In this document: piece by piece, positions 1,328 through 59,905 of the stretch
How positions within the stretch are numbered: position 1 is the stretch's first letter
Layout: every line of letters starts with the position of its first letter
Source: a virus
Lineage: Duplodnaviria; Heunggongvirae; Uroviricota; Caudoviricetes
Strand: one strand, 5' to 3'
Length of the DNA stretch: 64,000 nt
IMG/VR virus record: IMGVR_UViG_3300028887_000068
Coordinates: 178,490 to 242,489 of that record
Notes under the pieces: generated by a model
Database searches by the model: none
What the model was told of the DNA's origin: nothing
The model's input: the letters and a program-made list of their open reading frames with translations, nothing else
Made by a program: the position numbers and the translations under genes

Positions 1328-1360
1328 CAATGATAAGTTACGGGCATAAACTTATCAATG
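1328..1360. promoter_or_regulatory. Back-to-back AACT-N6-TG putative late promoters (1328-1339 on -, 1349-1360 on +)
   Basis: AACTTATCATTG on - and AACTTATCAATG on +, each about 20 nt upstream of a start codon with SD. Confidence 0.7.
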
Positions 1361-1383
1361 AATAACACCATTTTGAGGATTCT

Positions 1384-2313
1384 ATGAAACGTCTTTCTGA
1401 ATTGTCTATTATTACTGAGGAAAGTAAGGCGGCTACGGCTAAGAAGATTACTCTCCTCAATCCGAAGCTTGATACTGCTCCCAAAGCCTTTATCACCGAA
1501 ATGGTTCAGCAAATGCAAGCCAGAGAGAAGCGTCCTCTTCGTGCCAGACTCATCAGCGAAATTGAAAACGGAACCGTTGTTCCTGTCTTCTCTCCTGCTG
1601 CTTATGGCACTGGTCTTCCGTTCCTCCCGGTCTGGGTTGCTAGAAATGGTTCCGAAGCCGTTGGTGTTGCCAACTTAACCAATCGTTTCAAGGTCGATAA
1701 GAAAGGCGAAATCGCTTCCAACCCGAGACAGTTTTACAATCTCTGTGCTGCTGCCTTGATCTTTAAGGAAATCACCCTCAACCCTGAAGCCTTCACCCGT
1801 AATGTAAAGCTAGTCACTGCTCTTAGCCGTATCTATTCCAAGATTATGACCAAGGTGACTGACAAGCTCTACGGGATTAGCTACAATGAACTTGTGCTTG
1901 ACCAGATCCGTTACCTCTATGCGAAATTCTTTTTGATTTCTTCCATCGGTAAAGCTGGTGAAGCTGCTTCGCTCATTGCTCTTAAGTCTGTCAAGAATTC
2001 TTCTAGACAGGCGGTCATGGACATCGACAGATTGGTTCCGACAGCAGACTACGAGAACTTTGATAAGTTCACCGACCGTCTTGCTATCACATTCAACAAC
2101 CTGAGCAAGATTTCCATGCGTTCTGTCATTGCAGAAATCGTGAAGTCTTATGGTTCAACTTCGTTCCTCATTCCAGAATTTGCGCCTATGTTGATCATCA
2201 ACGTAATGCTTGCAATCTGGGATAGCGGAATCAACGTCTCCTTCGCTTACAATTCTGTACTCGAAAAAGACGGTGAAGATGTCCTGACTGAAATTCAGAA
2301 CATCATTAAATAA
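1384..2313 (+). CDS. Hypothetical protein, possibly virion-associated
   Basis: 309-aa ORF, SD gagga, AACT-N6-TG promoter, downstream hairpin. Confidence 0.7.
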   Translation: MKRLSELSIITEESKAATAKKITLLNPKLDTAPKAFITEMVQQMQAREKRPLRARLISEIENGTVVPVFSPAAYGTGLPFLPVWVARNGSEAVGVANLTNRFKVDKKGEIASNPRQFYNLCAAALIFKEITLNPEAFTRNVKLVTALSRIYSKIMTKVTDKLYGISYNELVLDQIRYLYAKFFLISSIGKAGEAASLIALKSVKNSSRQAVMDIDRLVPTADYENFDKFTDRLAITFNNLSKISMRSVIAEIVKSYGSTSFLIPEFAPMLIINVMLAIWDSGINVSFAYNSVLEKDGEDVLTEIQNIIK

Positions 2314-2347
2314 AAATAGAGAGAGATCTTGCGATCTCTCTATTTTT
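2312..2347. terminator. Bidirectional intrinsic terminator between convergent genes
   Basis: agagat-cttgcg-atctct stem (GCAA loop on - strand) flanked by A and T tracts. Confidence 0.75.
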
Positions 2348-4154
2348 ACTGCTCTCCAACGAAGAAGTCATCATAGACACCTTCAACGACTCTCTCATAC
2401 GTGTCGATTTCTTGAAGCTTCTTACGAAGATTCTCGAACGACAGGATCGTAGAAAGATTCTTGGTGTTGATGCCCTCGCTCAATCTGAGAACAGTAATCG
2501 GGCCAGTATCTGGCAACGAGAAGTCTGGTTTGTTTCCATTGATATCTCTCAACAGTGCCGACAAGATCGTTTCTGCATGAACAGATACAATCGGAATCTC
2601 ACCATCAACGATATACTTGAGGAACGCATTTGCGATAGCCACATAGTTGTTACCGATTCCGTTATGGCTGTCGGTCTGAATCAAGCTAATGAGATTCATC
2701 AATGCTTCGTTAAGCTCAACACTCTGACGACGCAACGTAAACAGTTCTTCGCTGTCTTCGATGTTGATGTTATACTCATGCTTGTATACTTCGAGTTCCT
2801 CTTTCACTCGTCCTGTCGGATACAGTGGTACAGGAAGATCGAATGTTTCCTGTGATTTCTTGTTCTTCACAGTCAGTCTGTTGACCACCAAGTTTCCTTC
2901 ATCGTCTTCACCAAGGTCTTCTCTTGCGATAGAGAACTTGCGAAGATCCTTTCCGGAAAGCAGCACATTCTTAGATTCTTCAAACAGTTCCGTGAATCCA
3001 GCTGGCCACTCGATGGGCTTAGTCTTTGCCATGAGAAGATGCTTTGCAGACAGAAGTCTCTGTGTCAAGCATGATGTAAGCAACAACACACCCACAGACC
3101 CAACACGGTAGTGTTCTTCGTTTGCCATATCGAACAAGTCGCCATAGCATCTTCTACAGATACCTGTCTTGCATGAACAAGTGATCGGGCTATAAATCTT
3201 AATCTTGCCTTTCATTCGTTCAAACTGTTCGGCACTTCCGTCAATCTTCTCTCCTGATTCCGTATATCTTCCTATCAGGCGAGTAAATGTCTTCATGTTC
3301 GGAACATCCACTTCCAACGGATGCTTCGTGTCACAGCACTCTTCATCTGACAATACAATGTCAGATGTGAGCAACAGCAACTTTCTTGCAAGGTATCCTG
3401 AGCGTCTCACTTGATGGTGAGAGATAACCAGTGCCTTTCTTGCACCAGTTGCAGATACCCAAAAGTCTTCAATACTTCTAAGTCCACGGATAAAGCTCGT
3501 GTTCACTGGGTGTTCGCAGATATTGTCATCGAGGTCTGGCTTCAGACCTACACACGCCACCATCTGAGTCAGCTGTTTCTTGTTAACAGCTTCTCCTCGG
3601 ATCAATTCTCTATACGGAGAATCTGGGGCGGAGAATACTCTACCGACTTCTTCAGTCAGCTTGGACATATCTTCTGACATTTCATCCAAGGTCTTGTGCT
3701 CATCGAGTTTGAAGTCGATGAGTTTCTTGGCTTCAGGATTACTCTTATACATCTTTGCAAGACTGTATAAGTCAACGGTAATACCGTGGATCTCATTTGT
3801 CTTTGTGGACAGAATGAGAAGATCCTGAATCACCTCAAAGATTTTCTCTTTCAGATTGTCTACTCCGGCTTCTCTTGCCATGTTCGCTAAGCGTCTGATA
3901 TACGCATCAACGTCCTTGGCACTATCACCGTCAAACAAATCGCTCTCATCGAACTCCATGTCCAAACCCTTGGACACAGCTCTCAATGCCGTAAGAGAGA
4001 TGATGGCTCGACCGACTGTCGTATCCTTGGTCAAAATCTTGATCGGAGTAGACTTTCGTTCTGCAATCGTTCCCTCTCCGTTAAAGAGGAATTCCCTGAG
4101 ACCAGTGTAGCTCTTTTCAATGCTTTCACTTGTCAGCGAAGTAATGCTATTCAT
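2346..4154 (-). CDS. Multisubunit RNA polymerase beta' subunit, C-terminal half (probably non-virion RNAP)
   Basis: Bridge helix GARKAL..RSGYLARKL, Zn site CCDT..SPITC..GICRRCYG, trigger loop TQRLLSAKH, C-terminal HAETIL/ILSFEN; lacks the DxDGD motif, so the gene is split. Confidence 0.9.
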   Translation of the reverse strand: MNSITSLTSESIEKSYTGLREFLFNGEGTIAERKSTPIKILTKDTTVGRAIISLTALRAVSKGLDMEFDESDLFDGDSAKDVDAYIRRLANMAREAGVDNLKEKIFEVIQDLLILSTKTNEIHGITVDLYSLAKMYKSNPEAKKLIDFKLDEHKTLDEMSEDMSKLTEEVGRVFSAPDSPYRELIRGEAVNKKQLTQMVACVGLKPDLDDNICEHPVNTSFIRGLRSIEDFWVSATGARKALVISHHQVRRSGYLARKLLLLTSDIVLSDEECCDTKHPLEVDVPNMKTFTRLIGRYTESGEKIDGSAEQFERMKGKIKIYSPITCSCKTGICRRCYGDLFDMANEEHYRVGSVGVLLLTSCLTQRLLSAKHLLMAKTKPIEWPAGFTELFEESKNVLLSGKDLRKFSIAREDLGEDDEGNLVVNRLTVKNKKSQETFDLPVPLYPTGRVKEELEVYKHEYNINIEDSEELFTLRRQSVELNEALMNLISLIQTDSHNGIGNNYVAIANAFLKYIVDGEIPIVSVHAETILSALLRDINGNKPDFSLPDTGPITVLRLSEGINTKNLSTILSFENLRKKLQEIDTYERVVEGVYDDFFVGEQ

Positions 4155-4241
4155 TAGCTCTCCTTGTGGATAATTTATAGTTACTTCAATTTCTTTATAT
4201 ACAAAAGAAAAGACTCTAAGGAAGTCCTTAGAGTCCTTGTA

Positions 4242-7025
4242 TTACTTTTCGTAATTAAAGATGATTGTCTTGTTAGCCATGAGAGTTTCGTTGTTAGTCT
4301 CGATACCGTGATTCTTCAATAGGATGAGGTTACATGGTTCTTGCATGAATTCTCGGTTATGGCTAATGACGAAGCACTGTTCCACCTTGAGATCGGCAAT
4401 CTGTCTTCTCAGCATCTTGACAAACCCAGTACGGTTCTGTTCATCAAGCACACCGTCTACTTCATCAAGGTATACGATGTTGTAGGAGTTGTTGATAGCC
4501 TTATTCAAGATAGCCAGAGACAGAGCTTGCTTGACAAACGACTGTTCAGCACCGCTTCCGAGCTTGCAGTCATCCAAGACGGTTCCATTGCTCTTCACGA
4601 TAGGGATAGAGAAATCCTTTTCTGTGATAACAAAGTCGCCGATGAGCAGCTCACCGTTAAAGGCAATCTGGAGCAGGTGGTTAGCCTTCTCACGGATCTC
4701 TTCAAGGTAAGTGTCAATGAGGTATAACGGAATACCCTTGGTCTGGTCGCAAGCAGCCTTAACAGCTTCAACGGCATTGTACTCGTCCTGAATCTTGGCA
4801 ATGCTAGCTTCGAGTTCATCACGCTTCTGCCTTTCGTACTTGTAGTTGTTAAGCTCGGTCTCCATAGCCTCTTTTTCCTTACGAGCATCAGTGATCTTTG
4901 TCGTAAGTTCCAAGAGAGCTTGACGGCTCTTAGCAATATCAGCAAGATATTGAACCATCTTTTCAACCTTAGCCTTGTTCTCTTCGATTTCCTTTCGTTT
5001 CTCTTCAAGAACAACAAAGGCTTTCTTCAGGTTCTTCAGATGTTCGATACGATCGCTGATAGAAGTAACTTCCTCGTTAGCAGCTCTGAAGCCTTCTTCT
5101 TCGGTACTGTAGCTAGACTGAAGCTCTTCGACCTTAGACGATGCCTTGGAGAGAGTTTCTCTGGCTGCACCAATGGCTTCGGCTTCACTGCTTACAGCCT
5201 TGAGCTGAAGCTTAGCATTAGCCAATGAAGAACGAGTATTTTCAAGTTCAAGTCTGGCATTAACGTAATTCTCGATATCGGAGACATCAAACAAGTCAAA
5301 CAGCTCGTCTTCAGTACCCTTCAAGTACTTCAGATAAGTCATCGTGTCGTTCAGCATCTGGATCTTAGAAATCAACCTGAGAGACAGCTTCTTCGAGAGT
5401 TCTTTCTTGAAGTTCTCGTAAATATCGCCACAGGAAGACAAGAAGCTAATCTTGTTGGTAAGATACATGGCTTCATTGTTCAATGAGTCACGGTCAATGG
5501 AAGCGAATTCTTCCTGTTCCTTCCTAAGAGCTGCAAGACGGATGATGGAACCCTTAGCTTCAACAGCTGCTGCAATGAACGGACAAGAGTCATTCTTACA
5601 AGAAGCCGGACGCTTGTTCAGCACTTCTTCAAGCTTAGCCTGAGCTTCAAGGAACTTGATGTCACTAGCGATAGTGATAATCTTGTTACGCTTTTCTTCA
5701 AGCTTTTTTAGCTCGGTTGTAGCCTCGAACAAGAGCTTGTTCACAACAGAGTGATCTGTCAAATCAACATCAGACAGGTCGTAAGACTTCAGCTGATCAC
5801 GAATGCCAGAAAGCAGAGTGTTAGCTTCGATGGATTCTCTCTTGAGAATTGCCAGTTCAGCTGCTCCGTAAGTGGTAAACTTCTTGTACTTGATATCCAC
5901 ATACTTAGACTTCATTTCTTCTGTGCATTGCTGAAGCTTTGTTTCGCCATCAGCGATCATTTCATTAAGACGATCCACTGTTCCCTGAGAGTCTTCAAGA
6001 GACTTCAGCTTAGCCTCTGCTCTTTCCTTTGCTTCGATGGCTTCATTAAGACCAGTCTTAGCGTTATTCATCATAACAGAATGAGTAGTCTTAGCTTCTC
6101 TCGCTTTATCAAGGTCAGGCTGAATATGCTCTATCTCTTCATCAGCACTTGTCAGAGAGAAGCCTTCCGGAATCTCAGCTTTCTGAATATCATAGATGCT
6201 TTCGAGTTCCTTGATCTTCTCATCGACCGGATTCTTACCTGTTCTTGCGAATACACGGAGTTCAGGGATAGACTTATCAGTCTCTGTCAGGATCCCATCA
6301 ATGATACCCTTTTCCTTTCCGTAATCCTTGTTAAGATCTTCAAGGATGGTATCCTTATCCTTGATAGCGATCTCAAGATTATCGATAGCGACTTGGCACT
6401 TCTCCTTGGAAGAGAGCTTGAGGAGTTCATCCTTGAATGTAGCCATCTGTCTACGGAGAGCCGTAAACTGTTCTGCTGCTTTCTTGTGGAAATTCAAGTA
6501 TGGGTCAATAGCCGGAAGGAACTGTCCGATGAACTTCTTACGATCGCTCTTAGAAAGGTCAACGAAGTTAGCAATCCCACCAATACGACCGACGACGAAA
6601 TAGTCTTCGGTTACGCCAAGATTGTCTTGAACACAGTCTCCGTATGACTTAATCTTACCAGACGAGTTCAGATTCTGCCATCTGCCGTTTTCAAGCTTGT
6701 AGAAGAAACACTTAGACTCATGTCTCTGTTCTTCATCGTTCCATACGTAGTTGATAACGGACTTGAAGACATTGTTCTCATCTTTCCTGAAGATGAGTTC
6801 CTTCATACCGTTTTCTTTTTCAATAATGATACGCTTACGGTTATCAAGAGAAGAAGGGAACGGATGCAGAACAGAAATGAGTGTAGTCTTTCCAGAGAAG
6901 TTCTTACCGAAGAGCATTGTAATAGGCTCATCGAGAGACTTCGTAAAATCGATTTCCAAAGTCCTGAGACCCATGCCTGTATAGAACCCAGCAAAGTTCT
7001 CAAACTTAGCTTTCAATATAATCAT
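4242..7025 (-). CDS. sbcC: SbcC/Rad50-like SMC ATPase
   Basis: Walker A GKNFSGKT, long coiled coils, hook CKNDSCPF, signature GSGAE, Walker B/D-loop YLDEVDGVLD, H-loop ISH. Confidence 0.92.
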   Translation of the reverse strand: MIILKAKFENFAGFYTGMGLRTLEIDFTKSLDEPITMLFGKNFSGKTTLISVLHPFPSSLDNRKRIIIEKENGMKELIFRKDENNVFKSVINYVWNDEEQRHESKCFFYKLENGRWQNLNSSGKIKSYGDCVQDNLGVTEDYFVVGRIGGIANFVDLSKSDRKKFIGQFLPAIDPYLNFHKKAAEQFTALRRQMATFKDELLKLSSKEKCQVAIDNLEIAIKDKDTILEDLNKDYGKEKGIIDGILTETDKSIPELRVFARTGKNPVDEKIKELESIYDIQKAEIPEGFSLTSADEEIEHIQPDLDKAREAKTTHSVMMNNAKTGLNEAIEAKERAEAKLKSLEDSQGTVDRLNEMIADGETKLQQCTEEMKSKYVDIKYKKFTTYGAAELAILKRESIEANTLLSGIRDQLKSYDLSDVDLTDHSVVNKLLFEATTELKKLEEKRNKIITIASDIKFLEAQAKLEEVLNKRPASCKNDSCPFIAAAVEAKGSIIRLAALRKEQEEFASIDRDSLNNEAMYLTNKISFLSSCGDIYENFKKELSKKLSLRLISKIQMLNDTMTYLKYLKGTEDELFDLFDVSDIENYVNARLELENTRSSLANAKLQLKAVSSEAEAIGAARETLSKASSKVEELQSSYSTEEEGFRAANEEVTSISDRIEHLKNLKKAFVVLEEKRKEIEENKAKVEKMVQYLADIAKSRQALLELTTKITDARKEKEAMETELNNYKYERQKRDELEASIAKIQDEYNAVEAVKAACDQTKGIPLYLIDTYLEEIREKANHLLQIAFNGELLIGDFVITEKDFSIPIVKSNGTVLDDCKLGSGAEQSFVKQALSLAILNKAINNSYNIVYLDEVDGVLDEQNRTGFVKMLRRQIADLKVEQCFVISHNREFMQEPCNLILLKNHGIETNNETLMANKTIIFNYEK

Positions 7026-7627: not shown

Positions 7628-7699
7628 GGTTCTCCTTTGGTTCGATATAAAGTTCGGGGTATGGATTCTTGAACTTTATAATGAACATATAAGGAGTCA

Positions 7700-8596: not shown

Positions 8597-8600
8597 ATTT

Positions 8601-12662: not shown

Positions 12663-12818
12663 AAGCTCTCCTTTTGATTTTTCAATATGAAGTTGCCATA
12701 AGATAAAGAAATAGAAATAGGTCAAAGACCTATTTCTATGAAATGTTACTTATGCTTTCCGTAGATGAAAATCATCGAGAGCACCGATAATGGAACCATA
12801 AGTATAGCTTTCAACGTC

Positions 12819-13434: not shown

Positions 13435-13983
13435 TTAGTCTAGATGTTTTGGAGCAGGAATCTCACCTTCGAATTCGAAGTCAATCGGGACAATCTGTCT
13501 CTTGCCTTCAAATGTTTCGATGATCTTACAACGCTCAAATTTATGAACAACATCCTTCGTTGCATTATACAGCTCCTGTAAAGCCATAGCCCAGATAGCA
13601 AAACTTCCATTAGGCTTATTCATCCTGTAGACGTCTCGCTCAAGTTCGTCGGGTTCTTGATGCCAGCATACTAAGCTCTTCATCTTTCCACGGACTTCAT
13701 CCGTTATAGATCTGAACATAATGTAAGCATGGTTGAATTCCGGGCCGTGGCCTGAACAACAGTACTGTGTTTCTACCCCTTCAATGCTGTTCAAACACAG
13801 AATGGGCAAGAGAATAGCATCATCAATATTATGGTATCCTTCCATAAACAGCTTTGCGCGGTCATAGACATCAGGCCACTGTACGATGTATTTCTTCTCT
13901 CTGAAGTTAACAAAGGCTTGGGATGTAGAGGTGCTGTTAGCACCATTACACACCAAGTCAAACGCTAATTCGTCTGGCGTCAT
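13435..13983 (-). CDS. Hypothetical protein with a TQYCCSGH motif
   Basis: 182 aa, ATGA-coupled to the RNAP beta gene. Confidence 0.65.
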   Translation of the reverse strand: MTPDELAFDLVCNGANSTSTSQAFVNFREKKYIVQWPDVYDRAKLFMEGYHNIDDAILLPILCLNSIEGVETQYCCSGHGPEFNHAYIMFRSITDEVRGKMKSLVCWHQEPDELERDVYRMNKPNGSFAIWAMALQELYNATKDVVHKFERCKIIETFEGKRQIVPIDFEFEGEIPAPKHLD

Positions 13984-15872
13984 TTCTTGATCCTTAATCC
14001 GAGTCCGCTGAGATAACCGTTAAGCATACTCTTCGGAACATTGTTGCCTTTCCTTTCGAGAATGATCTCTTCGCCTTCTTTCTTTTTGATGAGAGCTTGT
14101 GCAAGCGCTAATCTATCTTCAGAAGACTGAGAAGAGAACGACAACAAGTCAGAAATGTCTTTGAGGTTTCCAGAGAACATCAGGTTGGAGGTTTCTTGTT
14201 CACCAAGTCTAATCGGGGTCTTGCTAAGAATATCAGTACTCTTCGCACTCTTACTCTTGTTCGGCACACCCTTGGAACTAAGTAAGCCGACACATCTTGC
14301 AGACTGCTTGCCAGACGGTTCTTGTTTCAGACGCATAAAGTACGCCTTGGCAAACGTCAACGGACGGTCGATACCCTTGAACTTGGTCTGTTGAATTCCG
14401 AGTTCTTCAACCAGGTCAGCGTATTCTTCGAAGCTGATGTTATCAAAGAATGGCGGCATGTGAATCGGGAAGCCCTTGTCGTACATCTCATTGATGAACG
14501 TCGTCAGAGCTGTTTCATCCAACGACTCGATGTACTTATCAAAGGACTCCTTCTGGTCATAGTTCAGAGCAAGATAACATTCACGAATACCTTCGATCTT
14601 CCCATCGAGTTTATCGTTCATGTGTCTCTTTCTGAAGTTGTCCGCTATTTCGTTGATTGCAAGTTCAAACAACGCACCGGGGTTCAATCGACCGATGATA
14701 CCGAGAGGCGACATACAAACTTCTGCATGGTCTCCATCAATGGTTTCCGGCATCTGGTCATCGGGCAGGATCTTAGAAATCACGCCCTTAGAGCCATAGC
14801 GATTTGTAATCTTACAACCTTCTTCAAGCGGTCTCTGATGACAGACTTTCACGTTCAGATACAAGAAGTCAAATTCATTCTTAGCTATCCACGGCTTCTT
14901 TTCGCTATGCGGGCCGTTCACCGACTCCGTATACCTAGCTATCGCATACGATGCATCCGGTGTAAGCAAACCCGTTTGCTTATAGGGCCATAAAGTTTCA
15001 ATGATTTCCAACCAGTATCTTTCCTGATTTTCCAAGATATCTCTAATCTGCTTCGACCACGGTTCGTTCAGAACTTCGGACGCAACGTTAGAGTATACCG
15101 TAATGTCTTCCACATATCCTACTCCACTGAAGACTGCGTCTGATGCGATAATCTTCTGTGCTGTAGCATCTGTAAATCTTGCAAACGAAGAACGCTTTTC
15201 GTATCTACGTCTTGCACAAATGATACCATTACTAATCTCTTGGAAGATATCCGGGAGACACTTGTAGTCATTGCTGTCGCCGTAAAGATTAAGTAACACG
15301 TCGTTCGAGTTGATAAGAACGCCGTATTCCATGATCTCAGTGAAAGCCATCTTTTGCGCAGCTGTTTCCGATACCAAAATGGCGTCTTCGATGGTTCCAT
15401 CCTTATGGTTATAGAAGATCGTTTTCAGATTCTTTCCATAAGCCAAGTTTAAGTGGTCGTCATATGCCGAAGCCGAGCTAATCACTTCCCCTGCTTCAAT
15501 TTCCATTCCTTCCGTAATGTTCTCGAAATCGGGAACACGGTTAAGATAACCGAAGTGCTCGGTGAGTCTCTTCGAGCTTGTGATTTCTTTAAAGTCAATC
15601 TTTTTCGTCTCTTGATCTTCTAGTATCAAGGCATAAGTAGAGTCGTTCTTTTTGATAGCCTTGACTACCTTCTGCTTATGGTCATATCGAAGAATGGACG
15701 AAGAAACTTCTCCGACCTGATTCTCGAAATTCGTAAAGAGCAGAGGCGGTTCCGGATCATCCAATACAAGAGCCTGATTTAGATGGTTGCAGACCATGTT
15801 AAGTCTTGGGCCATCGATCTTGTTCGCATTGGGAACCAGCAGTTCACTTTCGAGAAAGCTGTGATCTGCCAT
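13980..15872 (-). CDS. Multisubunit RNA polymerase beta subunit, C-terminal half (probably non-virion RNAP)
   Basis: PRLNMVCNHLNQAL, EDAILVSE, GCKITNRYGSKGVIS, IGRLNPG, RLKQEP..SAR, IRLGEQE. Confidence 0.92.
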   Translation of the reverse strand: MADHSFLESELLVPNANKIDGPRLNMVCNHLNQALVLDDPEPPLLFTNFENQVGEVSSSILRYDHKQKVVKAIKKNDSTYALILEDQETKKIDFKEITSSKRLTEHFGYLNRVPDFENITEGMEIEAGEVISSASAYDDHLNLAYGKNLKTIFYNHKDGTIEDAILVSETAAQKMAFTEIMEYGVLINSNDVLLNLYGDSNDYKCLPDIFQEISNGIICARRRYEKRSSFARFTDATAQKIIASDAVFSGVGYVEDITVYSNVASEVLNEPWSKQIRDILENQERYWLEIIETLWPYKQTGLLTPDASYAIARYTESVNGPHSEKKPWIAKNEFDFLYLNVKVCHQRPLEEGCKITNRYGSKGVISKILPDDQMPETIDGDHAEVCMSPLGIIGRLNPGALFELAINEIADNFRKRHMNDKLDGKIEGIRECYLALNYDQKESFDKYIESLDETALTTFINEMYDKGFPIHMPPFFDNISFEEYADLVEELGIQQTKFKGIDRPLTFAKAYFMRLKQEPSGKQSARCVGLLSSKGVPNKSKSAKSTDILSKTPIRLGEQETSNLMFSGNLKDISDLLSFSSQSSEDRLALAQALIKKKEGEEIILERKGNNVPKSMLNGYLSGLGLRIKK

Positions 15873-15938
15873 TTTTCTCCTTGAGGTTAAAGATAGGAGA
15901 ATCCCAAGCGTTTCCTGAGATTCTCCTTATCTAATATA

Positions 15939-18110: not shown

Positions 18111-18137
18111 ATGTCCTCGCATGTTCATTGTAAAGTT

Positions 18138-20286: not shown

Positions 20287-20401
20287 ATACGCTCCTTGCA
20301 ATGTTTAGTTAGGAATAAGCCTCTATGACTGTTTTTCTGTTTGTTTTTTTATTTTTAATAAAAGAGAAAAAAAAACAAATCTCCGCGAGGGAGATTTATT
20401 C

Positions 20402-20638
20402 TTAAATGGGTTTTAATAACAACATCTTATCAGCGACAGAGTTGAAGTTAGGCTTAGAGATGACTTCATCATCCATCTGCAGCTCGATGATGTCTTTATA
20501 GTATACTTGCATCGGAGTGCCATTAGTGGTCTTGAACGTAAAGTAGTCCTGCATTGCGATGAAGGAATCGGCAGCAACAGAGTAGACGTTCGGAAGAGTA
20601 GAATAGCCTTTAGTCTTTAAACGAAGTTCGCAGATCAT
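20402..20638 (-). CDS. Small beta-rich protein (one copy of a local repeat domain)
   Basis: 78 aa, YKDIIELQMD motif, ATGA overlap. Confidence 0.6.
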   Translation of the reverse strand: MICELRLKTKGYSTLPNVYSVAADSFIAMQDYFTFKTTNGTPMQVYYKDIIELQMDDEVISKPNFNSVADKMLLLKPI

Positions 20639-21129: not shown

Positions 21130-21210
21130 AATCTCTCCTTTTCATTAGGAAGTTACCCTATGGTGTCAACTAGTTAATGATGTTTGCATACTTCAAAAGG
21201 AGATCTCATT

Positions 21211-23369: not shown

Positions 23370-23453
23370 ATAGAAAATCTCCTATAGATATTAGACAATT
23401 AGGAGTTTGTGCTATAAAAAAGTACTAACCATTACTGGTTAGCACCTTAAAAT

Positions 23454-24062: not shown

Positions 24063-24144
24063 ATAAACCTCTCATGTTATAATGTTTAACAATTTGGAGT
24101 TTAAGTATAAAAAGGACTAGCCTATGAAGCTAGTCCTTATAAAT

Positions 24145-31184: not shown

Positions 31185-31260
31185 TAGATGACTCCTTATA
31201 AATTCATTATGAAGTTCCGCCATAAAAAGGTGCATAGGCTTTTGACCTATGCACAATTTC

Positions 31261-32094: not shown

Positions 32095-32165
32095 AAGCTC
32101 TCCTTTCTATTGTGAAGTTTCGAGAATATAAAAACCCGTATCTTGCGATACGGGTCTTTATTACT

Positions 32166-36338: not shown

Positions 36339-36494
36339 AATTGGACTCCTTGTATTTGCTAAAGTTAATATTCATAAGACATTTATGAAATATCGATGCT
36401 CATTTTAGAGTTTCTGGAAGGATGATAAAATTGATAGTTTCTTCCTGAGTAAAATTCAGACTGCTGAGAGTATATTAAACTATGAGGTAAGATT

Positions 36495-37559: not shown

Positions 37560-37586
37560 AGGATATCCTCACTTTCATATTGGAGT

Positions 37587-38462
37587 TTACTTAGATTCGC
37601 TGACATACTGGCCGAGGAGCTTATCAAAGTCTTCGACAGCATGGGCGAATTCTTCAACGATGCTCATATCAAGACGTTCGAAGACATCTTTCGGCAGGGA
37701 TCTAGAAGCCATAGCAGCCACGGAAATGGTACTGAGAGTCTTTGCCAAACCCTTGACGAACTGTCTGGAGTCATAACCGCCGAGTTTGTGGCAGTAATTG
37801 GCTACAGCGATGGCGAAGCAACGATAGAGAGATTCCATCGGAGTCTTCACACAGAAGCGAAGAGCAAGGAGAAGATTCTTGAATGCTGGCTTACCAAGAA
37901 TTTCGTCAACGTACTTGACAGAGGCTTCGAATTTGTCCTTATCATTCCATACGTTGACGATAGCAGACGGACGGACATTTTCTTCTTCGAAGAAGCCCAT
38001 CGTCACTTTCTTCAGCGTAATGCTTTCTTGGAACTGGATATGGTTACGGTGAAGCTTCTGGAATTCGATCTTAAGCTTGTTCTTAAGGGAACTCTTACGC
38101 TTCGAGCCCTTGTATTCCTTCATCTTTTCGTTGATGAACTTATCGAGACCAACGGCATACGGTTGTGCAAGGAAGGCACGGGAGACCTTATGGGCAAGAT
38201 TGAAACCCTTGAGAGTTTCGCCAACGAGAGCCACAGCAGCAGCTTCACGCATGGCAGCAGCTTCTTCCTTTTCATCCTTTCCGCTAGCAGATTCCATGAT
38301 CTCCTGAGCTTTGTCAAGAGCGATGGTTTCATCTTCGCTCATCTGAGAACGGAGTTCAGCGTTGTCCTTAGCAATTTCTTCGGTTTTCTGTTCAAACGAG
38401 TTGATAGCTTCAAGAGCCTGTTCAGCTTGTTCTTCAATTTTCGGTTCCTGAGTTTCGCTCAT
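37587..38462 (-). CDS. Hypothetical protein
   Basis: 291 aa, SD aggag, acidic N-terminus. Confidence 0.7.
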   Translation of the reverse strand: MSETQEPKIEEQAEQALEAINSFEQKTEEIAKDNAELRSQMSEDETIALDKAQEIMESASGKDEKEEAAAMREAAAVALVGETLKGFNLAHKVSRAFLAQPYAVGLDKFINEKMKEYKGSKRKSSLKNKLKIEFQKLHRNHIQFQESITLKKVTMGFFEEENVRPSAIVNVWNDKDKFEASVKYVDEILGKPAFKNLLLALRFCVKTPMESLYRCFAIAVANYCHKLGGYDSRQFVKGLAKTLSTISVAAMASRSLPKDVFERLDMSIVEEFAHAVEDFDKLLGQYVSESK

Positions 38463-39289: not shown

Positions 39290-41234
39290 AGAACGTATCC
39301 TTCATGGTTTTCATTGAAAAGTTCGGCTCATTCCCGAAATTGAGAGAAAAGATCTTCCTCATTTTCAGGTCGTCGTGAACCACGTTTTCTTCAGAGCTAA
39401 TGATATGTTCAGTGATTGTCGTCATCTTCTCTTCCGGTACTGCAACACTCTTGCGTTCCCTGAGAGACGATGCACAGACTCTTCGCTTAAACATCTTAAA
39501 GCTATCGAACGATGCGGCATATCTGCCGATGAGCATGGACATAAGGAAGTCGTCATGAGCGCCGTTAGAATGTTCAACCTTTCCGTTGCTCTTGCGTTCC
39601 AGTGTCTTAAGCTCTTCATAGGTGAATCTAGACCGGATTGTATGCGGTTCTTCTTCAACATACATGAACAGATTAGCAATCATGATATCACGAGATCCGG
39701 AAGTAGTGTCAATACCGTAGACCTTCTGTACCTTGTTACCCTGTCCTGGGATCGGGTTATTGATAGTACGATAGAAGACTTTATTGGCAGTGACAGAACT
39801 CTCGAGCAATGTCGTAATCACGTCTAGACCATAGCTGTTTCTTTCAACCACTAAGAGCGAGTTATAGAACAGGTTACGGACTACTTCAATCAGAATTCTA
39901 GCAAACGGGATTGGGTTAATCCTATTCGAAGAGAAGTAACCCTTCTCGTGGAAATCATCAATATCAAGCATATGAATGACAGAGAAGTCAGTGCCGACAC
40001 CACCGCCAACGTCAACAGAGAGGATGACAGGATCATGGAAGTCCACTGGTTCAAGCATAGTGAACTTGTGGTTTCCTTGGTCTCCGATTCTAAGATAGGT
40101 CTCTTGTTCCTTACGGACAACAAAGTTGCTAACCCTTTCAAGACAGTCTTCGGTGAACGGAGACTTATCGGAAGAGAGCGTCCATTCAAGGTCAACTTCA
40201 CGCTTAATCTTCTGTCTATCGTACTGAAGATCACGGCACTGCTGTTCGTACCACTTTTCATCACGACCGAGTTCTCTCCATGTGAATTCAATGTGGACGA
40301 AGTTATTGGTAGATCTTTCGTAGACATAATCCCTAAGCTTGTCAGCCGGAACGTCATACATTTCTTCAGTAAAGTCACAAGCAGCTTCAATAAGGTTATG
40401 CTTAGCCCATCCGCCTTCATCAGTATCGATAGAGTTCGGCGTAGTGGTAAACATCTTGAAATGAGGCACACCATTCTTCTCAGCTTCGATAGCAGCCTGA
40501 GATACAGCCGGAGCAGCAGCTGCATAGATGATGTTATTATATTTGGCGAACGCAATTTCATCGAAGAACCAGCACGGCATCGTAAGACCACGACCAAGCT
40601 TGTCTGCTTCTTCAGGGGATGTAGCAGCTGGCATAGCCGTGATTATATTCTTCAATAGCTTGTTACGAGAGAAAGTCGTAGAAGATTCTTGGTCTTCTCT
40701 GGACTGCTTCGGTTCAATCATCCATGCCGGAATCAATTCAACGATGTTCTTGAATCTCTTAAGGTTCACTTGTGCATCGCCATATTTCTTGTTCATGAAC
40801 GTTGACTGCGTGTTTTTTGTTCCGAAGAAAAATAGCCAAGAAAATAAAGACACAGCACCGATGGTCTTACCGTGTTGACGAGGCATCAATGTGATCGTGT
40901 CTATGTTATGAAGGCTCATGTAAGTCAGAGCAAGGTTTCCGCGATGGAGATTATAGGGGATAGAGCCACCCGGAACAGGAATTCGTACTACCTCTCTAAA
41001 ATAGTACCAAGGATTTATCTTGCACTCCGTAATTATTCGAGCCTTTATCTCTGTAGAAAGTCCTTCAGCTCTAGGATCAACAAATCTTAATCCTTCATCA
41101 TACAATGCTAAGAAAAACTTGTTGTTCTTGATTCCTTTTTCCTTCAGGTATTGGTGCATCTGAAGGAAGCTGGTATTTTTAGTTAGCTGGTAGGATACTT
41201 TCCGTTGAGTGAGATCGGAAAGTTGTGCTGCCAT
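39246..41234 (-). CDS. terL: Terminase large subunit
   Basis: NPWYYFRE, Walker A PRQHGKT, Walker B FFDEIAF, TTP, nuclease motifs SVDVGGG, ERNSYG, HDD. Confidence 0.93.
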   Translation of the reverse strand: MAAQLSDLTQRKVSYQLTKNTSFLQMHQYLKEKGIKNNKFFLALYDEGLRFVDPRAEGLSTEIKARIITECKINPWYYFREVVRIPVPGGSIPYNLHRGNLALTYMSLHNIDTITLMPRQHGKTIGAVSLFSWLFFFGTKNTQSTFMNKKYGDAQVNLKRFKNIVELIPAWMIEPKQSREDQESSTTFSRNKLLKNIITAMPAATSPEEADKLGRGLTMPCWFFDEIAFAKYNNIIYAAAAPAVSQAAIEAEKNGVPHFKMFTTTPNSIDTDEGGWAKHNLIEAACDFTEEMYDVPADKLRDYVYERSTNNFVHIEFTWRELGRDEKWYEQQCRDLQYDRQKIKREVDLEWTLSSDKSPFTEDCLERVSNFVVRKEQETYLRIGDQGNHKFTMLEPVDFHDPVILSVDVGGGVGTDFSVIHMLDIDDFHEKGYFSSNRINPIPFARILIEVVRNLFYNSLLVVERNSYGLDVITTLLESSVTANKVFYRTINNPIPGQGNKVQKVYGIDTTSGSRDIMIANLFMYVEEEPHTIRSRFTYEELKTLERKSNGKVEHSNGAHDDFLMSMLIGRYAASFDSFKMFKRRVCASSLRERKSVAVPEEKMTTITEHIISSEENVVHDDLKMRKIFSLNFGNEPNFSMKTMKDTFYGQVQRFNDRYRRS

Positions 41235-41250
41235 AGATACTCCTATAGTT

Positions 41251-41281
41251 CAATAGGTAGTTAGGGCAGAACTCAATAATG
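41251..41281. promoter_or_regulatory. Back-to-back AACT-N6-TG promoters for terL and the RNAP beta fragment
   Basis: AACTACCTATTG (-, 41251-41262) and AACTCAATAATG (+, 41270-41281). Confidence 0.7.
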
Positions 41282-44860: not shown

Positions 44861-44947
44861 ATCAGCCTCTTGAATGATTTTTTCATTAGAAAGTTCCCAT
44901 AGGCAAAAAATAAAAGCTCCCTTTCGGGAGCTGGAAAATGGTCTAGC

Positions 44948-46628: not shown

Positions 46629-47420
46629 CATTATGTTACGAATGTTCGCTACACATTCTCTCTATATCTCTATAGAGTTCAGACTATATTATACGCTAAA
46701 AGCGCTCATGTCTTTCGGTCTCGCTTGAGACCTACTCCCTTACGGGATAGTCGTTGAACGTTCTCACTTTTCGCTAAGAATATTAAGCTCTCTTTCCTTC
46801 ATGGCACGATACTCAGATGCTTGTTTAAAAGCCTCTTCGTAGCCTAAATCTCTTATAGAGAAACACTTGCAGAAATGTCTATCGTTCTCATTCCACTGTG
46901 CTATAAAGAGATCAGACCTATTTCCCTGTGCCTTTTTGAAGTATACTCCTGTCCTTCCGCTAGAGTTATTTCGTGATTTTCGGCAGTTCAGATTATTCTC
47001 TGTCGAAGATACAATACGAAGATTCTCTCTTCGGTTATCAAGAGTATTGCGATTAATATGGTCAACAATATCTGTTCGTGACATGGCATTAAGGACGTAT
47101 CTATGCAACTTGCAAGTCTTTCCGTTCATTTTGCAAGCCACATAATGATTCTCATTTGTTGAATCCTTTATGTACCATTGTCTAGAAGACACTCGTTCAA
47201 GATCTTCTCTTGAGATGAGCACTTCGCCATCGATTTTGTTGCCTGTAATCACAAGCTTAACAGTCTTGCTATCTAAGATTTCAAATTTATTCATATTGAA
47301 AAGTTAGATGTAAGCTTCGCTGCTGATTGTCCAATCCCAAAGATTGTCACCATTTGGTACTTTGGGCTCTAAGGAGTTTCCAGCAATTAACATGATTTAA
47401 CGTGCGCATGTAGATTGTTT
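46629..47420 (-). ncRNA. Group I self-splicing intron (792 nt)
   Basis: 5' splice site after U (GGUGCGU) paired U.G with GCGCAC; P AAUUGCUGGAAA, Q AAUCAGCAG, R UUCAACGACUA, S AAUAUAGUCU; terminal G; in-frame exon junction. Confidence 0.92.
46764..47294 (-). CDS. Intron-encoded HNH endonuclease with a C-terminal AP2-like domain
   Basis: LHRYVL..VDHINRNTLDNRRENLR..N; NNSSGRTGVYF..FIAQW..FSI..GYEEAF..A..YR. Confidence 0.9.
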   Translation of the reverse strand: MNKFEILDSKTVKLVITGNKIDGEVLISREDLERVSSRQWYIKDSTNENHYVACKMNGKTCKLHRYVLNAMSRTDIVDHINRNTLDNRRENLRIVSSTENNLNCRKSRNNSSGRTGVYFKKAQGNRSDLFIAQWNENDRHFCKCFSIRDLGYEEAFKQASEYRAMKERELNILSEK

Positions 47421-49029: not shown

Positions 49030-49088
49030 AATGTTCCTCTCTAGTTTTCTCGCATTTATTAGTTCGGAATATAAAAAGATAGAGAGTC

Positions 49089-50281: not shown

Positions 50282-50377
50282 AGTATCCTCATTATTTTTC
50301 AATCATGAGTTAAGGGAAAAATAAACCTATAAGGTTTTACCCTTATAGGTTTACGAAACACTAGAAACGAAGCCGAA

Positions 50378-51448: not shown

Positions 51449-51543
51449 AATTATGTTCCTTGTTTGAAAAGTTTTACATAGAATTACGGATTTTCTTCGG
51501 TCATGACCCGTATTCAATGCTTAGTTAAAAATATCACTCAATT

Positions 51544-51957: not shown

Positions 51958-52010
51958 CAGAACCCCACTATATAAATATAGCTGAAGATTTCTCTTCAGC
52001 TATGAGTTCA

Positions 52011-52730: not shown

Positions 52731-52846
52731 AGTGTTTCTCCATTGTTAGGTGGTTTCCATTCCTTAGTTCGGTATATCGTAGAATTACCACTGGCGATCG
52801 TATATAATTATAGGCTATTAACCACTAAAAAATAACAGGAGTAAAA

Positions 52847-52948: not shown

Positions 52949-53045
52949 AATACCGTGCAACGAGCGGTGACCACAAGGGCGGTATGACATTTGTCATATC
53001 GCTCTTATTTTTTTGTTGAACTATAAAATGAAAGGAGTAAAATAA

Positions 53046-53759: not shown

Positions 53760-53767
53760 GGTAAACA

Positions 53768-54878: not shown

Positions 54879-54920
54879 AAATCGAAAGAACTCCTTGTTG
54901 AGAACAACAAGGAGATTTTT

Positions 54921-55469: not shown

Positions 55470-55504
55470 AAAAAAAACATAGGCGAAAGCCTATGTTTCT
55501 ATTT

Positions 55505-56677: not shown

Positions 56678-57195
56678 TTTTTCGGCTCCCTGAATTTGAT
56701 ATGGAATAATACCCTAGGAGTAGCAGAGTAATACTTATCGCAACCTTCGTTTACAACAAGCTTATCATCATCCCAGAGTACGTTGTTAGCCGCATCCATG
56801 AACAACTTTGCGTAGTTATCCACGTCCGGCTTCGTAAGCGGACGGAGTAATCCTTCTTCATACAAAGGCATCTCGTAATCCTTAACGGTCTTAGGAGCTT
56901 TCTTGTATGAATCCATCTTGAAATAGATGGCTGTATCGCGAATCATGGAGACCCCAGCATCTTTCATCGCATCCAGAATGTAATCCCTAAAGATCTTCTT
57001 GGTAGAAGTATTGGGGTCATACATGGACAGGAACTTACCGTTCTTATCCATTCTGGCACGTTCGCGTTGCCAAGCCTTCGGTTCTCCCATAATCTCTATC
57101 GTGATTTCCTTCCACTGGAAGTCATTGATGAGATGGATGCGGAGTTCCTTAGTCTTCTGAGCTATCTTCTCTTCTTTAGTAAGGGTGCTAGCCAT
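56674..57195 (-). CDS. rusA: RusA-family Holliday junction resolvase; start revised to MASTL
   Basis: GEPKAWQRER, KPDVDNYAKLFMDA.N..WDDD.LV..K.Y. Confidence 0.88.
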   Translation of the reverse strand: MASTLTKEEKIAQKTKELRIHLINDFQWKEITIEIMGEPKAWQRERARMDKNGKFLSMYDPNTSTKKIFRDYILDAMKDAGVSMIRDTAIYFKMDSYKKAPKTVKDYEMPLYEEGLLRPLTKPDVDNYAKLFMDAANNVLWDDDKLVVNEGCDKYYSATPRVLFHIKFREPKK

Positions 57196-57438
57196 AATTT
57201 CCTCTTTGTTAGATTGTGAATTATAATCTATAAAAAGTTCATTTGATACATGAATTATTCGTCCTTGATATAATATGGCGTCCAAATTTGCACTGAAATT
57301 ATAGTCTTTTCCGGAGGCCCATCTAACTATACATTGAAAATGTCTAGGATCCTAGTACAGTAGACATTTCTCTTGGAGCTAGGATAACATTAAGTCCTGG
57401 TTCCGTTTTCTCACAATCAAAAATAAAAGGATACAATT

Positions 57439-59331
57439 ATGTCCGTTTCTTACATGCAACCTTCTCAGAAGATGGCTGCTTGCAATGACTCGTTCACCTC
57501 CACTCTTCGCGAAGTGGCTGAAGAATTCAGCGCAAGCAATGTTAACATCTTCAACGCCGATGACTTCAAAGACGTCTTGGGCGATGATGGCCTCTTTGGT
57601 CGTTATTCTGAAATGCTCGCTGCTGGCCTTGATGAAGCCGAAGCAGAACAGTTCAAGACTATTGCACAGTCTTCTCGTATTGAAGCTCTCGAAGCTGCCT
57701 CCCTTGGTACAGTTGCTCCGATGTCCTTCCTCCAGACCCCGATGCTCCGTAAGTCTTGGGCTCGTACGGCTATGAACAAGGCTATCCCGACGGAAGCTGT
57801 TGAAAAGCCGAAGTTCACCATTAACTACCTCCATCCGTGGCTCAAGGATCTTCAGGGCAACAAGCACTATGTGCCGGAAAACCTCATGGACATCGATACC
57901 GCTGTCTCTAAGGTTCGCCTTGCTGAAGATGTGAAGTTCTATTTCGGCGCAGGTAACTGCTTCTCCATGAATCTCCTCACTGGTCTTGATGTTGACGAAT
58001 TCGGCAACGACATTGCTAATTCTAAGAACTACAAGACTCCGACTGGCGGTACTGCGGATTCTACTCCGAAGTATGATGCAGCTATCGGCATGGTCAACCA
58101 TGAAAATGACGAAGTTGACGTGAACGTTTCTGTCATTACGGCTGGCTTCGATTCTTCGAAATATGTTGCCAATGCTGGTGTTCTCGTTAACGGTGTTTCG
58201 AGAAAGCTCTTGGCTCCGGCTTCCGGAACAGTCGCTCTTACTCTTAACGGCACCGCTCTCACCGATGCTGATCTCGTCAAGAACTGCAAGATCGAATGCG
58301 GCACCCGTCGTGGTGGCATCAAGGGTGTTGTGACCCTCGACGTTGAAGTTGATGCAGCTTGCATTGATTCTGGTGCAACTGGTACCGTCATCGTGACGCT
58401 CGTTGACGCTATCTACGGTGACGTTGATGTGAAGACTGGTCGTCTCACTCTCATGCAGCAGCATGGCAACCTCAAGTTTGTCATGATCAAGGCATTCGTG
58501 TCCTCTGTCATGAACAACAGCACTCTTCAGGTTGGCTTCGATATCCGCGACAAGGAAATCCACATCGGTACTGGTGAACACCTTGAAGCTCCGGTTCCGA
58601 ACGAATACATCACGGACTTGCTCCGTATGTTTACGCTCAACGGTGTTTCCAAGCTCGTGGAAATCCTCTCCAGCTTCCTCGCTCAGAAGATGGACTTGGA
58701 TGGCGTTAACTTCATGGATGAAGTTATTGATGACGCTATCGAACAGGCTCCGAATGGCGACTTCGTTCGTGCATTCTCTGCAAAGCCGGTGGGTAACTAC
58801 CAGCTGAACCCGGCAGAATGGCCCAAGATGCTTACCAAGGTGCTCGACCACCTCTCCATGAGCATCATCAACATGTACCATTACGAACAGGGTTACTTCG
58901 TTGCGGCTTGCAACCCGCTCGATGCAGCTCTCATTCCGGACATCAACTGGGTGTTCCACGGTAATGGTCAGTCCGAATATGCTGGCGTGAATGCTAACAT
59001 TGCCTTCGGTCAGTATCAGGGTATCAACTCTTGGAAGGTTGTCTCCTCTCCGAACATCCCGCAGGGCGCTATCCGCGTTCTCTTCATCCCGACTGTTCAG
59101 GATCAGATGACTTACAAGCTCTATACCTACAGCTTCATGCTCGAACAGGCTGGCTCTGGCTACAACAGCCCGAAGAACACTTACGTTCCGACCATCCTCA
59201 CCTCTCGTCGTTACGCCTATGTTGACGTGATGCCGGGCGCAGGTCGTGTGACGATCACGAACAACAGTGCAAACTTCTACAGTTTTGCAGGCGTGTCGCC
59301 TTATTTGCCGACTGAAACGTTCATCCACTAA
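57439..59331 (+). CDS. Major capsid protein (T4 gp23-like, with propeptide)
   Basis: 630 aa, extreme codon bias, C-terminal PTILTSRRYA, acidic leader ending ALE/A, late promoter 57325-57336, strong terminator. Confidence 0.8.
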   Translation: MSVSYMQPSQKMAACNDSFTSTLREVAEEFSASNVNIFNADDFKDVLGDDGLFGRYSEMLAAGLDEAEAEQFKTIAQSSRIEALEAASLGTVAPMSFLQTPMLRKSWARTAMNKAIPTEAVEKPKFTINYLHPWLKDLQGNKHYVPENLMDIDTAVSKVRLAEDVKFYFGAGNCFSMNLLTGLDVDEFGNDIANSKNYKTPTGGTADSTPKYDAAIGMVNHENDEVDVNVSVITAGFDSSKYVANAGVLVNGVSRKLLAPASGTVALTLNGTALTDADLVKNCKIECGTRRGGIKGVVTLDVEVDAACIDSGATGTVIVTLVDAIYGDVDVKTGRLTLMQQHGNLKFVMIKAFVSSVMNNSTLQVGFDIRDKEIHIGTGEHLEAPVPNEYITDLLRMFTLNGVSKLVEILSSFLAQKMDLDGVNFMDEVIDDAIEQAPNGDFVRAFSAKPVGNYQLNPAEWPKMLTKVLDHLSMSIINMYHYEQGYFVAACNPLDAALIPDINWVFHGNGQSEYAGVNANIAFGQYQGINSWKVVSSPNIPQGAIRVLFIPTVQDQMTYKLYTYSFMLEQAGSGYNSPKNTYVPTILTSRRYAYVDVMPGAGRVTITNNSANFYSFAGVSPYLPTETFIH

Positions 59332-59351
59332 TCTGGAAATGGGTTTTAAAT

Positions 59352-59905
59352 GGTCTAGACTTCGGTCTAGACCATTTTTATAACTCGCTAATGAAAGGAG
59401 ATTCTTCTATGAACACAACAGCTAATGAAAGTGTTATTTCCGAAATTTCTGACCTCTGGGAGCGTTACGAGGACTACATGGCTCCTAAGCTTAAGGAAGG
59501 TACAGATTCTATCATTGAAGAGCTTAAGAAAGCAAAGACAGCACCTGAAATTAATGCTATTGATGACCGTATCGATAAAGCCATCAATCAATGCACGAAG
59601 CTCTCTAATGCTCATGCCTATACTCTCGAACACCTAATCGTTGATATTAAGCAATGCCTCATTTTCCTTATCCCAGTCTTATGGCTTCCAAGTATCGTTG
59701 CCGCTATAATCAGTGACTTCTACAAGCATGGCCCGTTACTTAAAGAGAATCTGGACAAGTCGCTCTATTTCCGTATCGCTAAAACGGCTAAAGAGTGTCT
59801 TCCCAGACTCAAAAAAGCTAAGGCTGAAGCTACGGCTAAACTCGCCAAGGCTAGGGCACAAAAATAAAATAACCTTTACGGTCTAGACTTCGGTCTAGAC
59901 CATTT
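59352..59905. repeat. Two identical 26-bp UUCG terminator hairpins (59352-59377 and 59880-59905)
   Basis: ggtctagacttcggtctagaccattt occurs twice, flanking one gene. Confidence 0.9.
59409..59867 (+). CDS. Putative virion protein with a hydrophobic segment; start revised to MNTTANES
   Basis: Promoter AACTCGCTAATG at 59382-59393, SD aaggag. Confidence 0.6.
   Translation: MNTTANESVISEISDLWERYEDYMAPKLKEGTDSIIEELKKAKTAPEINAIDDRIDKAINQCTKLSNAHAYTLEHLIVDIKQCLIFLIPVLWLPSIVAAIISDFYKHGPLLKENLDKSLYFRIAKTAKECLPRLKKAKAEATAKLAKARAQK

Follow-up and report, generated by a model that had tools for sequence, protein, structure and literature searches.

An AACT-N4-A(A/T)TG element ahead of the genes of an uncultivated jumbo phage, a probable variant of the AR9 late promoter

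What is the short sequence that recurs just ahead of genes in the terminal 64 kb of an uncultivated jumbo phage contig, and which enzyme reads it? The contig is a single IMG/VR virus record of 242,489 bp with a G+C content of 43% and a CheckV completeness estimate of 94%. Its last 64 kb (178490–242489) are referred to as the window, and coordinates are those of the window unless the genome is named. A first-pass annotation had described a promoter AACT-N6-T(G/A) at 28 positions there and had taken it for a variant of the late promoter of phage AR9. The recurring element was found to be tighter, AACT-N4-A(A/T)TG, and it is very probably a late-class promoter read by the phage non-virion RNA polymerase (nvRNAP) through a sigma-like subunit resembling gp226 of AR9.

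All 28 positions carry AACT-N6-T(G/A) on the strand assigned to them, but the pattern is too loose to be enriched. The window holds 70 copies of AACT-N6-TR where 84.8 ± 8.6 are expected, and the genome 246 where 270 are expected; the pattern was dropped as a signal for this reason in favour of the consensus common to the cited copies. That consensus, AACT-N4-A(A/T)TG, is 12 bases long and usually followed by AA; it is fitted exactly by 23 of the 28 copies, and the other five (4171, 32108, 37576, 47294 and 54889) are one-mismatch variants. The strict motif was present 26 times in the window, compared with 6.75 ± 2.49 expected, a count reached in none of 100 shuffles, and 67 times genome-wide (about 19 expected). 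Sixty of these 67 copies are non-coding, though non-coding DNA makes up only 12.6% of the genome; 'non-coding' is defined here by our own simple gene caller, which made 237 calls and picks starts with a Shine-Dalgarno sequence (SD) and ATG. The shuffle, orientation and conservation tests are independent of this caller. Genes contain seven strict copies, whereas chance would put about 17 there, and this shortage suggests that the motif is avoided there, consistent with selection against spurious internal promoters.

Both the spacing and the individual bases of the motif are specific. A spacer of 4 nucleotides (nt) before A(A/T)TG gave 60 non-coding matches, compared with 0–5 for the other lengths tried between 1 and 8 nt. 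Each core base proved specific when relaxed in turn; at the fourth position (−8, with the final base as +1), T gave 60 non-coding sites and A gave three. AACT-N4-TATG was not favoured (4 copies genome-wide, 9.7 expected). When all pairs of 4-mers separated by a gap were counted in the 80 nt upstream of the 237 gene calls, the top pairs were AACT-N6-TGAA (36), AACT-N4-AATG (32) and AACT-N5-ATGA (29). They outranked the pairs formed by ribosome-binding sites and start codons (SD/ATG), and coding controls gave 0–2. Enrichment of the tight motif was confirmed by an unbiased word-pair count, by coding controls and by shuffles. The signal is real and strong, and it is the strongest upstream signal in the genome.

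The placement of the copies is nearly uniform. Fifty-nine of the 60 non-coding copies aim at the start of the adjacent gene and none lies between convergent genes; the leader, counted from the motif's final base up to the start codon, has a median of 21 nt among the non-coding genome copies. The statement that more than 20 copies stand just upstream of genes was borne out, as 27 of the 28 cited copies are followed, 13–103 nt past their last base, by an SD and an ATG opening a reading frame of at least 40 amino acids. The sole exception is 47294(−), where the motif's final A doubles as the first base of the ATG. The motif itself ends in ATG or TTG and therefore gives rise to false start codons. 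At seven sites (12683, 18126, 20299, 31205, 50300, 51515 and 59382) the longest open reading frame (ORF) opens no later than the putative +1, in many cases at the ATG or TTG contained in the motif, and a good SD and ATG come after it. Provided that the motif is a promoter, it corrects at least these seven start calls in the window, in agreement with the earlier annotation. At 21168, a TTG lacking an SD sits 5 nt past +1.

Strand specificity and closeness to ribosome-binding sites would also suit an element acting in RNA, namely a 5′ untranslated region signal (for instance a translational operator or a site processed by an endonuclease), with the true promoters elsewhere; sequence alone cannot tell a promoter from an element transcribed with its gene. 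We nevertheless consider this very unlikely. Divergent intergenic regions of 60 nt hold two outward-facing copies back to back, which leaves no space for another promoter upstream of either one. Start codons follow at anything from 13 to 103 nt, and the closest relative that has been studied has an experimentally mapped promoter of identical geometry, the reader protein of which has a homologue encoded in this genome. Alternatively, a phage transcription factor distinct from the polymerase might bind the motif and activate or repress promoters with weak or unrecognised elements, as it is short and conserved and holds a fixed place before many genes of several functional classes. The strict orientation noted above, the lack of dyad symmetry and the AR9-like layout from −11 to +1 fit a core promoter better, and the word-pair count left no further shared signal upstream of these genes; a separate factor is marginally less likely still.

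The motif is conserved in the relatives of this clade, which are known from metagenomic contigs only: L003, L004 (contig G001), G002 (136 kb) and G003 (235 kb, 91% complete). G003 shares about 72% nucleotide identity with the present genome across 46% of the latter. It contains 59 strict copies, compared with 12 for a reversed control pattern, and 53 of them are non-coding, all 53 aimed at the adjacent gene start. Forty-six of the 60 sites could be aligned with G003, and the eight core positions were 96–100% identical whereas the N4 spacer was 78–89% identical. Alignments with L003 and L004 showed the same core-over-spacer footprint, including at the back-to-back pair between the terminase gene and an RNA polymerase (RNAP) piece.

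The affinities of the phage point to the enzyme that may read the motif. No megablast match to a 12.5-kb query was found among GenBank phages, and none of these is near-identical. The window and the rest of the genome encode the pieces of a split multisubunit RNAP; the best tblastn matches of the β-C piece are in AR9/PBS1 (36%), phiR1-37 (35%), Listeria phage LPJP1 (32%) and Staphylococcus phage S6 (31%). Homologues in AR9, phiR1-37, LPJP1 and S6 were detected by BLASTP for 56 of the 237 gene calls, with identities of 21–51%. Because of these matches, sequence comparison places the phage as a distant, uncultivated member of the AR9-like group.

The AR9 late promoter is A(−11)ACA-N6-T-A/G(+1), transcription starting at its last base (PMC5312081), and substitution at −11, −10, −9 or −8 abolishes transcription (PMC5449584). 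The template strand, 3′-UUGU-5′, is read by the sigma-like subunit gp226, in which V206 rejects thymine at −10 within a pocket also lined by I207, and Y210 stacks on the −9 G (PMC9209446). The account of AR9 given in the first-pass annotation, comprising the consensus, the required template uracils at −11 and −10 and gp226 as the specificity subunit, agrees with the literature (PMC5312081, PMC5449584, PMC7598289, PMC9209446). The gp226 homologue that it had suggested looking for is encoded outside the window, at genome positions 76781–78217, and its sole match in the PDB is AR9 gp226 (chain 7S01_A, E 1.4e-12). Helix 2.1bis reads YTDMLIWSYL here and YSDVVIWTYL in AR9, with D204, I207, W208 and Y210 kept. 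All four core pieces of AR9 nvRNAP have homologues as well; those of β-N and β′-N (BLASTP E 6e-69 and 2e-40, respectively) are encoded outside the window, by the two genes at genome 68737–70224 and 143503–144882. R363 of β-N is conserved, and the alignment around K375 of β-N is ambiguous. A HMMER search gathered 172 cluster representatives of the gp226 family from metagenomes, across which W208 is invariant.

By homology with AR9, the template-strand element from −11 to −8 would be the part recognised, 3′-(U/T)(U/T)GA-5′ in this phage compared with 3′-UUGU-5′ in AR9. Transcription would start at the final G, a placement suggested by the conserved G followed by AA and by analogy with AR9. The mRNAs would then begin with GAA and carry leaders of roughly 13–30 nt bearing the ribosome-binding site. 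Such a promoter would occupy 12 nt and require no upstream element, so that two copies could fit back to back.

Several points weigh against this assignment. The promoter role, the reading enzyme, the strand it would read and the start site are drawn from homology and position, and the gp226 homologue is just 27% identical to AR9 gp226. The non-coding class hinges on our own gene calls, which select SD and ATG starts. Some copies, few in number, are intragenic or stand more than 120 nt from the start codon. Since replication genes (helicase, DNA polymerase and SbcCD) follow the motif too, the class called 'late' here could in truth be 'late plus continuous', a class also present in AR9.

Virion genes and likely virion-RNAP genes are among those that follow the motif. 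Copies stand ahead of the major head protein, tail sheath, head protease and large terminase genes, of a baseplate-like gene and of several virion protein genes, and also ahead of RNAP pieces unmatched to nvRNAP chains. Another copy stands before a homologue of an annotated AR9 virion-RNAP subunit (genome 117456). The RNAP β-like piece at 41295–42026 had no match to the AR9 nvRNAP chains and is for this reason probably a virion-RNAP subunit. The copy at 18126(−) stands at the head of a minus-strand gene run that reaches nvRNAP βC.

A separate motif, TATAT(A/T)A, often extended to TGTATAT(A/T)AAGA, was found in 74 copies, of which 57 are non-coding and 46 of those are aimed at a gene start. It stands 25–47 nt ahead of start codons, a range that widens to 25–69 nt with the copies in the window, which are at 4195(−), 8690(+), 15932(−), 18825(−), 46274(−), 60795(−), 61992(−), 62921(−) and 62934(+). 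Each of the five nvRNAP genes has a motif of this class upstream, the β-N gene as a variant. Early-class and AACT motifs stand in tandem before the β′C gene (4195 and 4171) and before the gene for the gp226 homologue, an arrangement that matches the 'continuously expressed' class of AR9. The AT-rich virion-RNAP promoters of AR9 and phiKZ resemble TATAT(A/T)A, which by this analogy probably serves the virion RNAP as its early promoter. The AACT motif does not belong to the virion-RNAP early type, an extended, highly conserved AT-rich element of about 10–13 nt.

The second motif bears on which polymerase reads the first. The phage encodes two RNAPs and the assignment of the AACT motif to one of them is by analogy; it might instead be read by the virion RNAP, which would make it an early promoter, or by host RNAP with a phage or host sigma factor. 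The virion-RNAP promoters of every studied relative are extended and AT-rich, and a motif of that kind exists separately in this genome. The AACT motif precedes virion and virion-RNAP genes, which the virion RNAP, being their own product, cannot make early, and it bears no resemblance to the −35 and −10 elements of sigma-70. Reading by another polymerase is the least likely of the explanations weighed. With nvRNAP as the reader of AACT-N4-A(A/T)TG, the virion polymerase would make nvRNAP through TATAT(A/T)A, and nvRNAP would then transcribe the late genes; the same two-polymerase cascade operates in AR9 and phiKZ.

Two other candidates for promoters were rejected. GGATC(T/A)TAGAA, the commonest 12-mer, was considered as an early promoter and set aside since the majority of its copies are intragenic. 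The wider family GATC-N-TAGAA, mostly GGATC(T/A)TAGAA, counts 24 copies genome-wide, mostly intragenic, and several of its non-coding copies adjoin hairpins; examples in the window are at 2445(+), 5361(+), 14769(+), 30491(−) and 62419(+). TTTCTTTTTTG were rejected as well, as they are the T-tracts of terminator hairpins.

How far does the motif depart from that of AR9? As a positive control, the word-pair count recovered AACA-N4-ATTA in AR9, and it returned AACA-type motifs, not AACT, in AR9, phiR1-37 and LPJP1. Since AACA was recovered in these phages and substitutions at −8 abolish transcription in AR9, the shift in specificity at −8 is real. The idea of a related enzyme with specificity shifted at this position is therefore supported by the gp226 homologue, the four core pieces, the AR9 geometry and the AACA of the relatives. 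The change of A to T is not the whole difference, as the motif also holds A(−3) and A/T(−2), and T(−8) is not unique to this lineage. Metagenomic relatives with Val at the V206 position differ among themselves: L079 has AACA-N4-WWTG, L081 has AACA-N4-WTTA and L080 has AACT-N4-A(A/T)TTG-like sites. T at −8 was confined, among those typed, to this clade (G000, G001, G002, G003 and L003) and L080; typing left aside L064 (a 65%-identical gp226 relative on a short contig) as well as L082, L083 and L084, which were too short, AT-rich or GC-rich. Judged from these sequences, position −8 has switched between A and T on more than one occasion.

Neither of two candidate causes accounts for T at −8. L080 combines Val with AACT, so the flip at −8 is uncoupled from V206L and this substitution was ruled out. 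The β′ lid is 4 residues shorter here than in AR9, but it is equally short in phiR1-37, which uses AACA.

The survey of relatives also yielded motifs of interest in themselves. Yersinia phage phiR1-37 (NC_016163.1), for which no late promoter consensus could be found in previous work (PMC5312081, PMC4848604), has a late-type AACA-N5-TTAGT, and AACA-N6-TAGT occurs in 31 of its upstream regions compared with 0.7 in coding controls. In Listeria phage LPJP1 (MZ422438.1), which encodes a gp226 homologue with Val, AACA-N6-TATA lies upstream of genes (27 against 0.3). The word-pair count gave no clear motif in Staphylococcus phage S6 because its genome is very AT-rich. IS605 OrfB/Cas12f1-like TNB genes were noted near the GroEL–gp226 block in related jumbo-phage contigs (L080:3070–3381 and L084:2291–3454).

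The uracils read by AR9 gp226 raise the question, already posed in the first-pass annotation, of whether this phage contains deoxyuridine (dU) in its DNA. The balance of evidence tips slightly in favour. Both AAC, hence (U/T)(U/T)G in the template, and the helix forming the uracil pockets are conserved, and the closest cultured relatives are dU phages, the cultured AR9-like members with deoxyuridine DNA being AR9/PBS, phiR1-37 and S6 (PMC7598289). ThyA, ThyX and dUTPase were not found in this genome, on a contig estimated to be 94% complete, or in G003, and a dCMP deaminase is present in this genome. AR9, phiR1-37, S6 and LPJP1 likewise have no ThyA, ThyX or dUTPase, whereas the thymine-DNA jumbo phages phiKZ and Simmy50 encode ThyA. 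An NT5C-type deoxynucleotidase was considered as a dTMP-depleting marker and found uninformative, being absent here and also in AR9, phiR1-37, S6 and phiKZ.

Against dU stands the residue equivalent to AR9 V206, which was reported to be absolutely conserved in dU phages (PMC9209446) and is replaced by Leu throughout this clade. The absence of genes from a 94%-complete contig is, in addition, weak evidence. Leu was found in this genome, P0002–P0004, L062 and L063, and Val in AR9, LPJP1, S6 and phiR1-37. In the family as a whole, about 155 sequences were aligned at this column; 85 have Val and the rest are varied, with Leu only in this clade and one other. Of the cluster representatives (P0005–P0153), about 10 carry Gly or Ala at this position and others Lys, Arg, Ile or Thr, and such proteins may be variants that tolerate thymine naturally.

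That the phage represents a new branch of dU jumbo phages, with an nvRNAP reading template 3′-UUGA-5′ through a pocket that has Leu instead of Val, is put forward tentatively, as a possibility somewhat less probable than dU itself; a dependence of the promoter on uracil would be extrapolated from AR9. If there is such a branch, the 172 clusters of the gp226 family would imply that the few cultured phages greatly understate how common and how varied uracil genomes and the reading of promoters on the template strand are. A thymidylate-synthase profile combined with the motif offers a cheap metagenome screen for candidate uracil-DNA phages.

Table 1. Copies of the AACT-N4-A(A/T)TG motif and nvRNAP genes in the window. 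Leaders are given from the putative +1.
Feature	Coordinates	Strand	Context
Strict motif AACTTATCATTG	1328..1339	−	18-nt leader, SbcD-like gene 108–1310; back-to-back with 1349(+)
Strict motif	1349..1360	+	24-nt leader, virion structural protein gene 1384–2313
nvRNAP β′ C-terminal subunit gene	2346..4154	−	7S00_D, E 2e-62
Variant (ATTA end)	4171..4182	−	17-nt leader, nvRNAP β′C gene; early-class TATATAA at 4195(−) just upstream
One-mismatch candidate AACTTTATATCG	7643..7654	−	Not among the 28 first cited; 16 nt before gene 7022–7627; divergent from 7672(+)
Strict motif	7672..7683	+	17-nt leader, gene 7700–8596
Strict motif	12683..12694	−	21-nt leader, head maturation protease, ATG 12662; longest ORF (TTG 12725) would engulf motif
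nvRNAP β C-terminal subunit gene	13980..15872	−	7S00_C, E 6e-113; early-class TATATTA at 15932(−) upstream
Strict motif	18126..18137	−	Own ATG is longest-ORF start; SD and ATG 18110, 16-nt leader
Strict motif	20299..20310	−	13-nt leader, DNA helicase gene, ATG 20286; longest-ORF TTG 20301 within motif
Strict motif	21143..21154	−	14-nt leader, gene 20635–21129; back-to-back with 21168(+)
Strict motif	21168..21179	+	32-nt leader, ATG 21211
Strict motif	23396..23407	−	27-nt leader, gene 21693–23369 (lectin-fold domain)
Strict motif	24090..24101	−	28-nt leader, gene 23454–24062
Strict motif	31205..31216	−	21-nt leader, virion structural protein, ATG 31184; longest-ORF GTG 31316 would engulf motif
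Variant (AATA end)	32108..32119	−	14-nt leader, gene 31261–32094
Strict motif	36401..36412	−	63-nt leader, tail sheath gene 32166–36338; motif and most of leader near-identical in L004
Variant (TATG end)	37576..37587	−	17-nt leader, virion structural protein gene 36828–37559
Strict motif	39312..39323	−	Within 3′ end of terminase ORF; 23-nt leader, gene 38471–39289; AACT kept in L003 and L004
Strict motif	41251..41262	−	17-nt leader, large terminase gene 39246–41234; back-to-back with 41270(+), 60-nt intergenic region
Strict motif	41270..41281	+	14-nt leader, RNAP β-like piece 41295–42026
Strict motif	44884..44895	−	24-nt leader, baseplate-wedge-like gene 42065–44860
Variant (AATA end)	47294..47305	−	HNH endonuclease gene 46764–47294, no SD; weakest cited copy
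Strict motif	49053..49064	−	24-nt leader, DNA polymerase piece 47419–49029
Strict motif	50300..50311	−	19-nt leader, virion structural protein, ATG 50281; longest-ORF TTG 50302 within motif
Strict motif	51515..51526	−	67-nt leader, ATG 51448; longest-ORF TTG 51517 within motif
Strict motif	52758..52769	−	28-nt leader, gene 52011–52730
Strict motif	53019..53030	+	16-nt leader, gene 53046–53759
Variant (GTTG end)	54889..54900	+	21-nt leader, gene 54921–55469
One-mismatch candidate AACTTTTTATAG	57228..57239	−	Not among the 28 first cited; 33 nt before RusA-like gene 56674–57195
Strict motif	57325..57336	+	103-nt structured leader, major head protein gene 57439–59331
Strict motif	59382..59393	+	Own ATG (59391) is longest-ORF start; SD and ATG 59409, 16-nt leader

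Some leaders in the window have features of their own. The leader of the major head protein gene, 57336–57441(+), is predicted to form two stable hairpins, the first of them from the putative +1 (−25.8 kcal/mol, z −3.05), which may be an mRNA-stabilising 5′ stem-loop. The folds of the sheath leader and the leader at 51515 were no more stable than those of shuffled sequence (z 0.5 and −0.6, respectively). Over about 60 nt the tail-sheath leader, 36339–36412(−), hardly differs from that of L004, although the DNA around it is about 73–81% identical. At 47292–47305(−), where the variant ends on the A of the HNH endonuclease ATG, a leaderless mRNA or a chance match is possible.

Taken together, the element represents a known class of promoter with an altered sequence, in an uncultivated lineage that is new, and not a new kind of system. 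To our knowledge, AR9 nvRNAP is the only enzyme of its type with both a defined promoter and a solved structure. The clade-conserved promoter differs from that of AR9 at a position where AR9 tolerates no change, and the natural specificity variants at −8, +1 and residue 206 offer a means of finding out how template-strand reading by a sigma-like protein works.

The AR9 late promoter (PDB 7S01, 7UM0 and 7UM1) shares with the motif AAC at −11 to −9 and the same distance to the T-purine at −1/+1. In both phages there is no −35-like element, leaders are short, and the promoters lie before virion genes and in tandem with early promoters; the conserved 2.1bis helix and the four split β/β′ pieces have their counterparts here, at 27–36% identity to the AR9 proteins. 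AR9 has A at −8 where this phage has T (60 sites, compared with 3 with A). Unlike in AR9, A(−3) and A/T(−2) are conserved and the presumed start base is almost always G; Leu stands in place of gp226 V206, and the shortened β′ lid is the part that contacts −8 in AR9. The phages phiR1-37 and LPJP1 and the contigs L079 and L081 show the same AAC-N-N6-T-purine layout upstream of genes and encode gp226 homologues, with A at −8. The phiKZ late promoter, T(−3)ATG(+1), served by an nvRNAP with gp68, shares the (A/T)TG end and the presumed G start, and phiKZ has a homologous split multisubunit polymerase with a fifth subunit, as here. It has no conserved upstream element, whereas AACT at −11 to −8 is essential to the motif described here; the TATG of the phiKZ type does not occur as the favoured form, position −3 being A and not T, and phiKZ has thymine DNA and its own ThyA.

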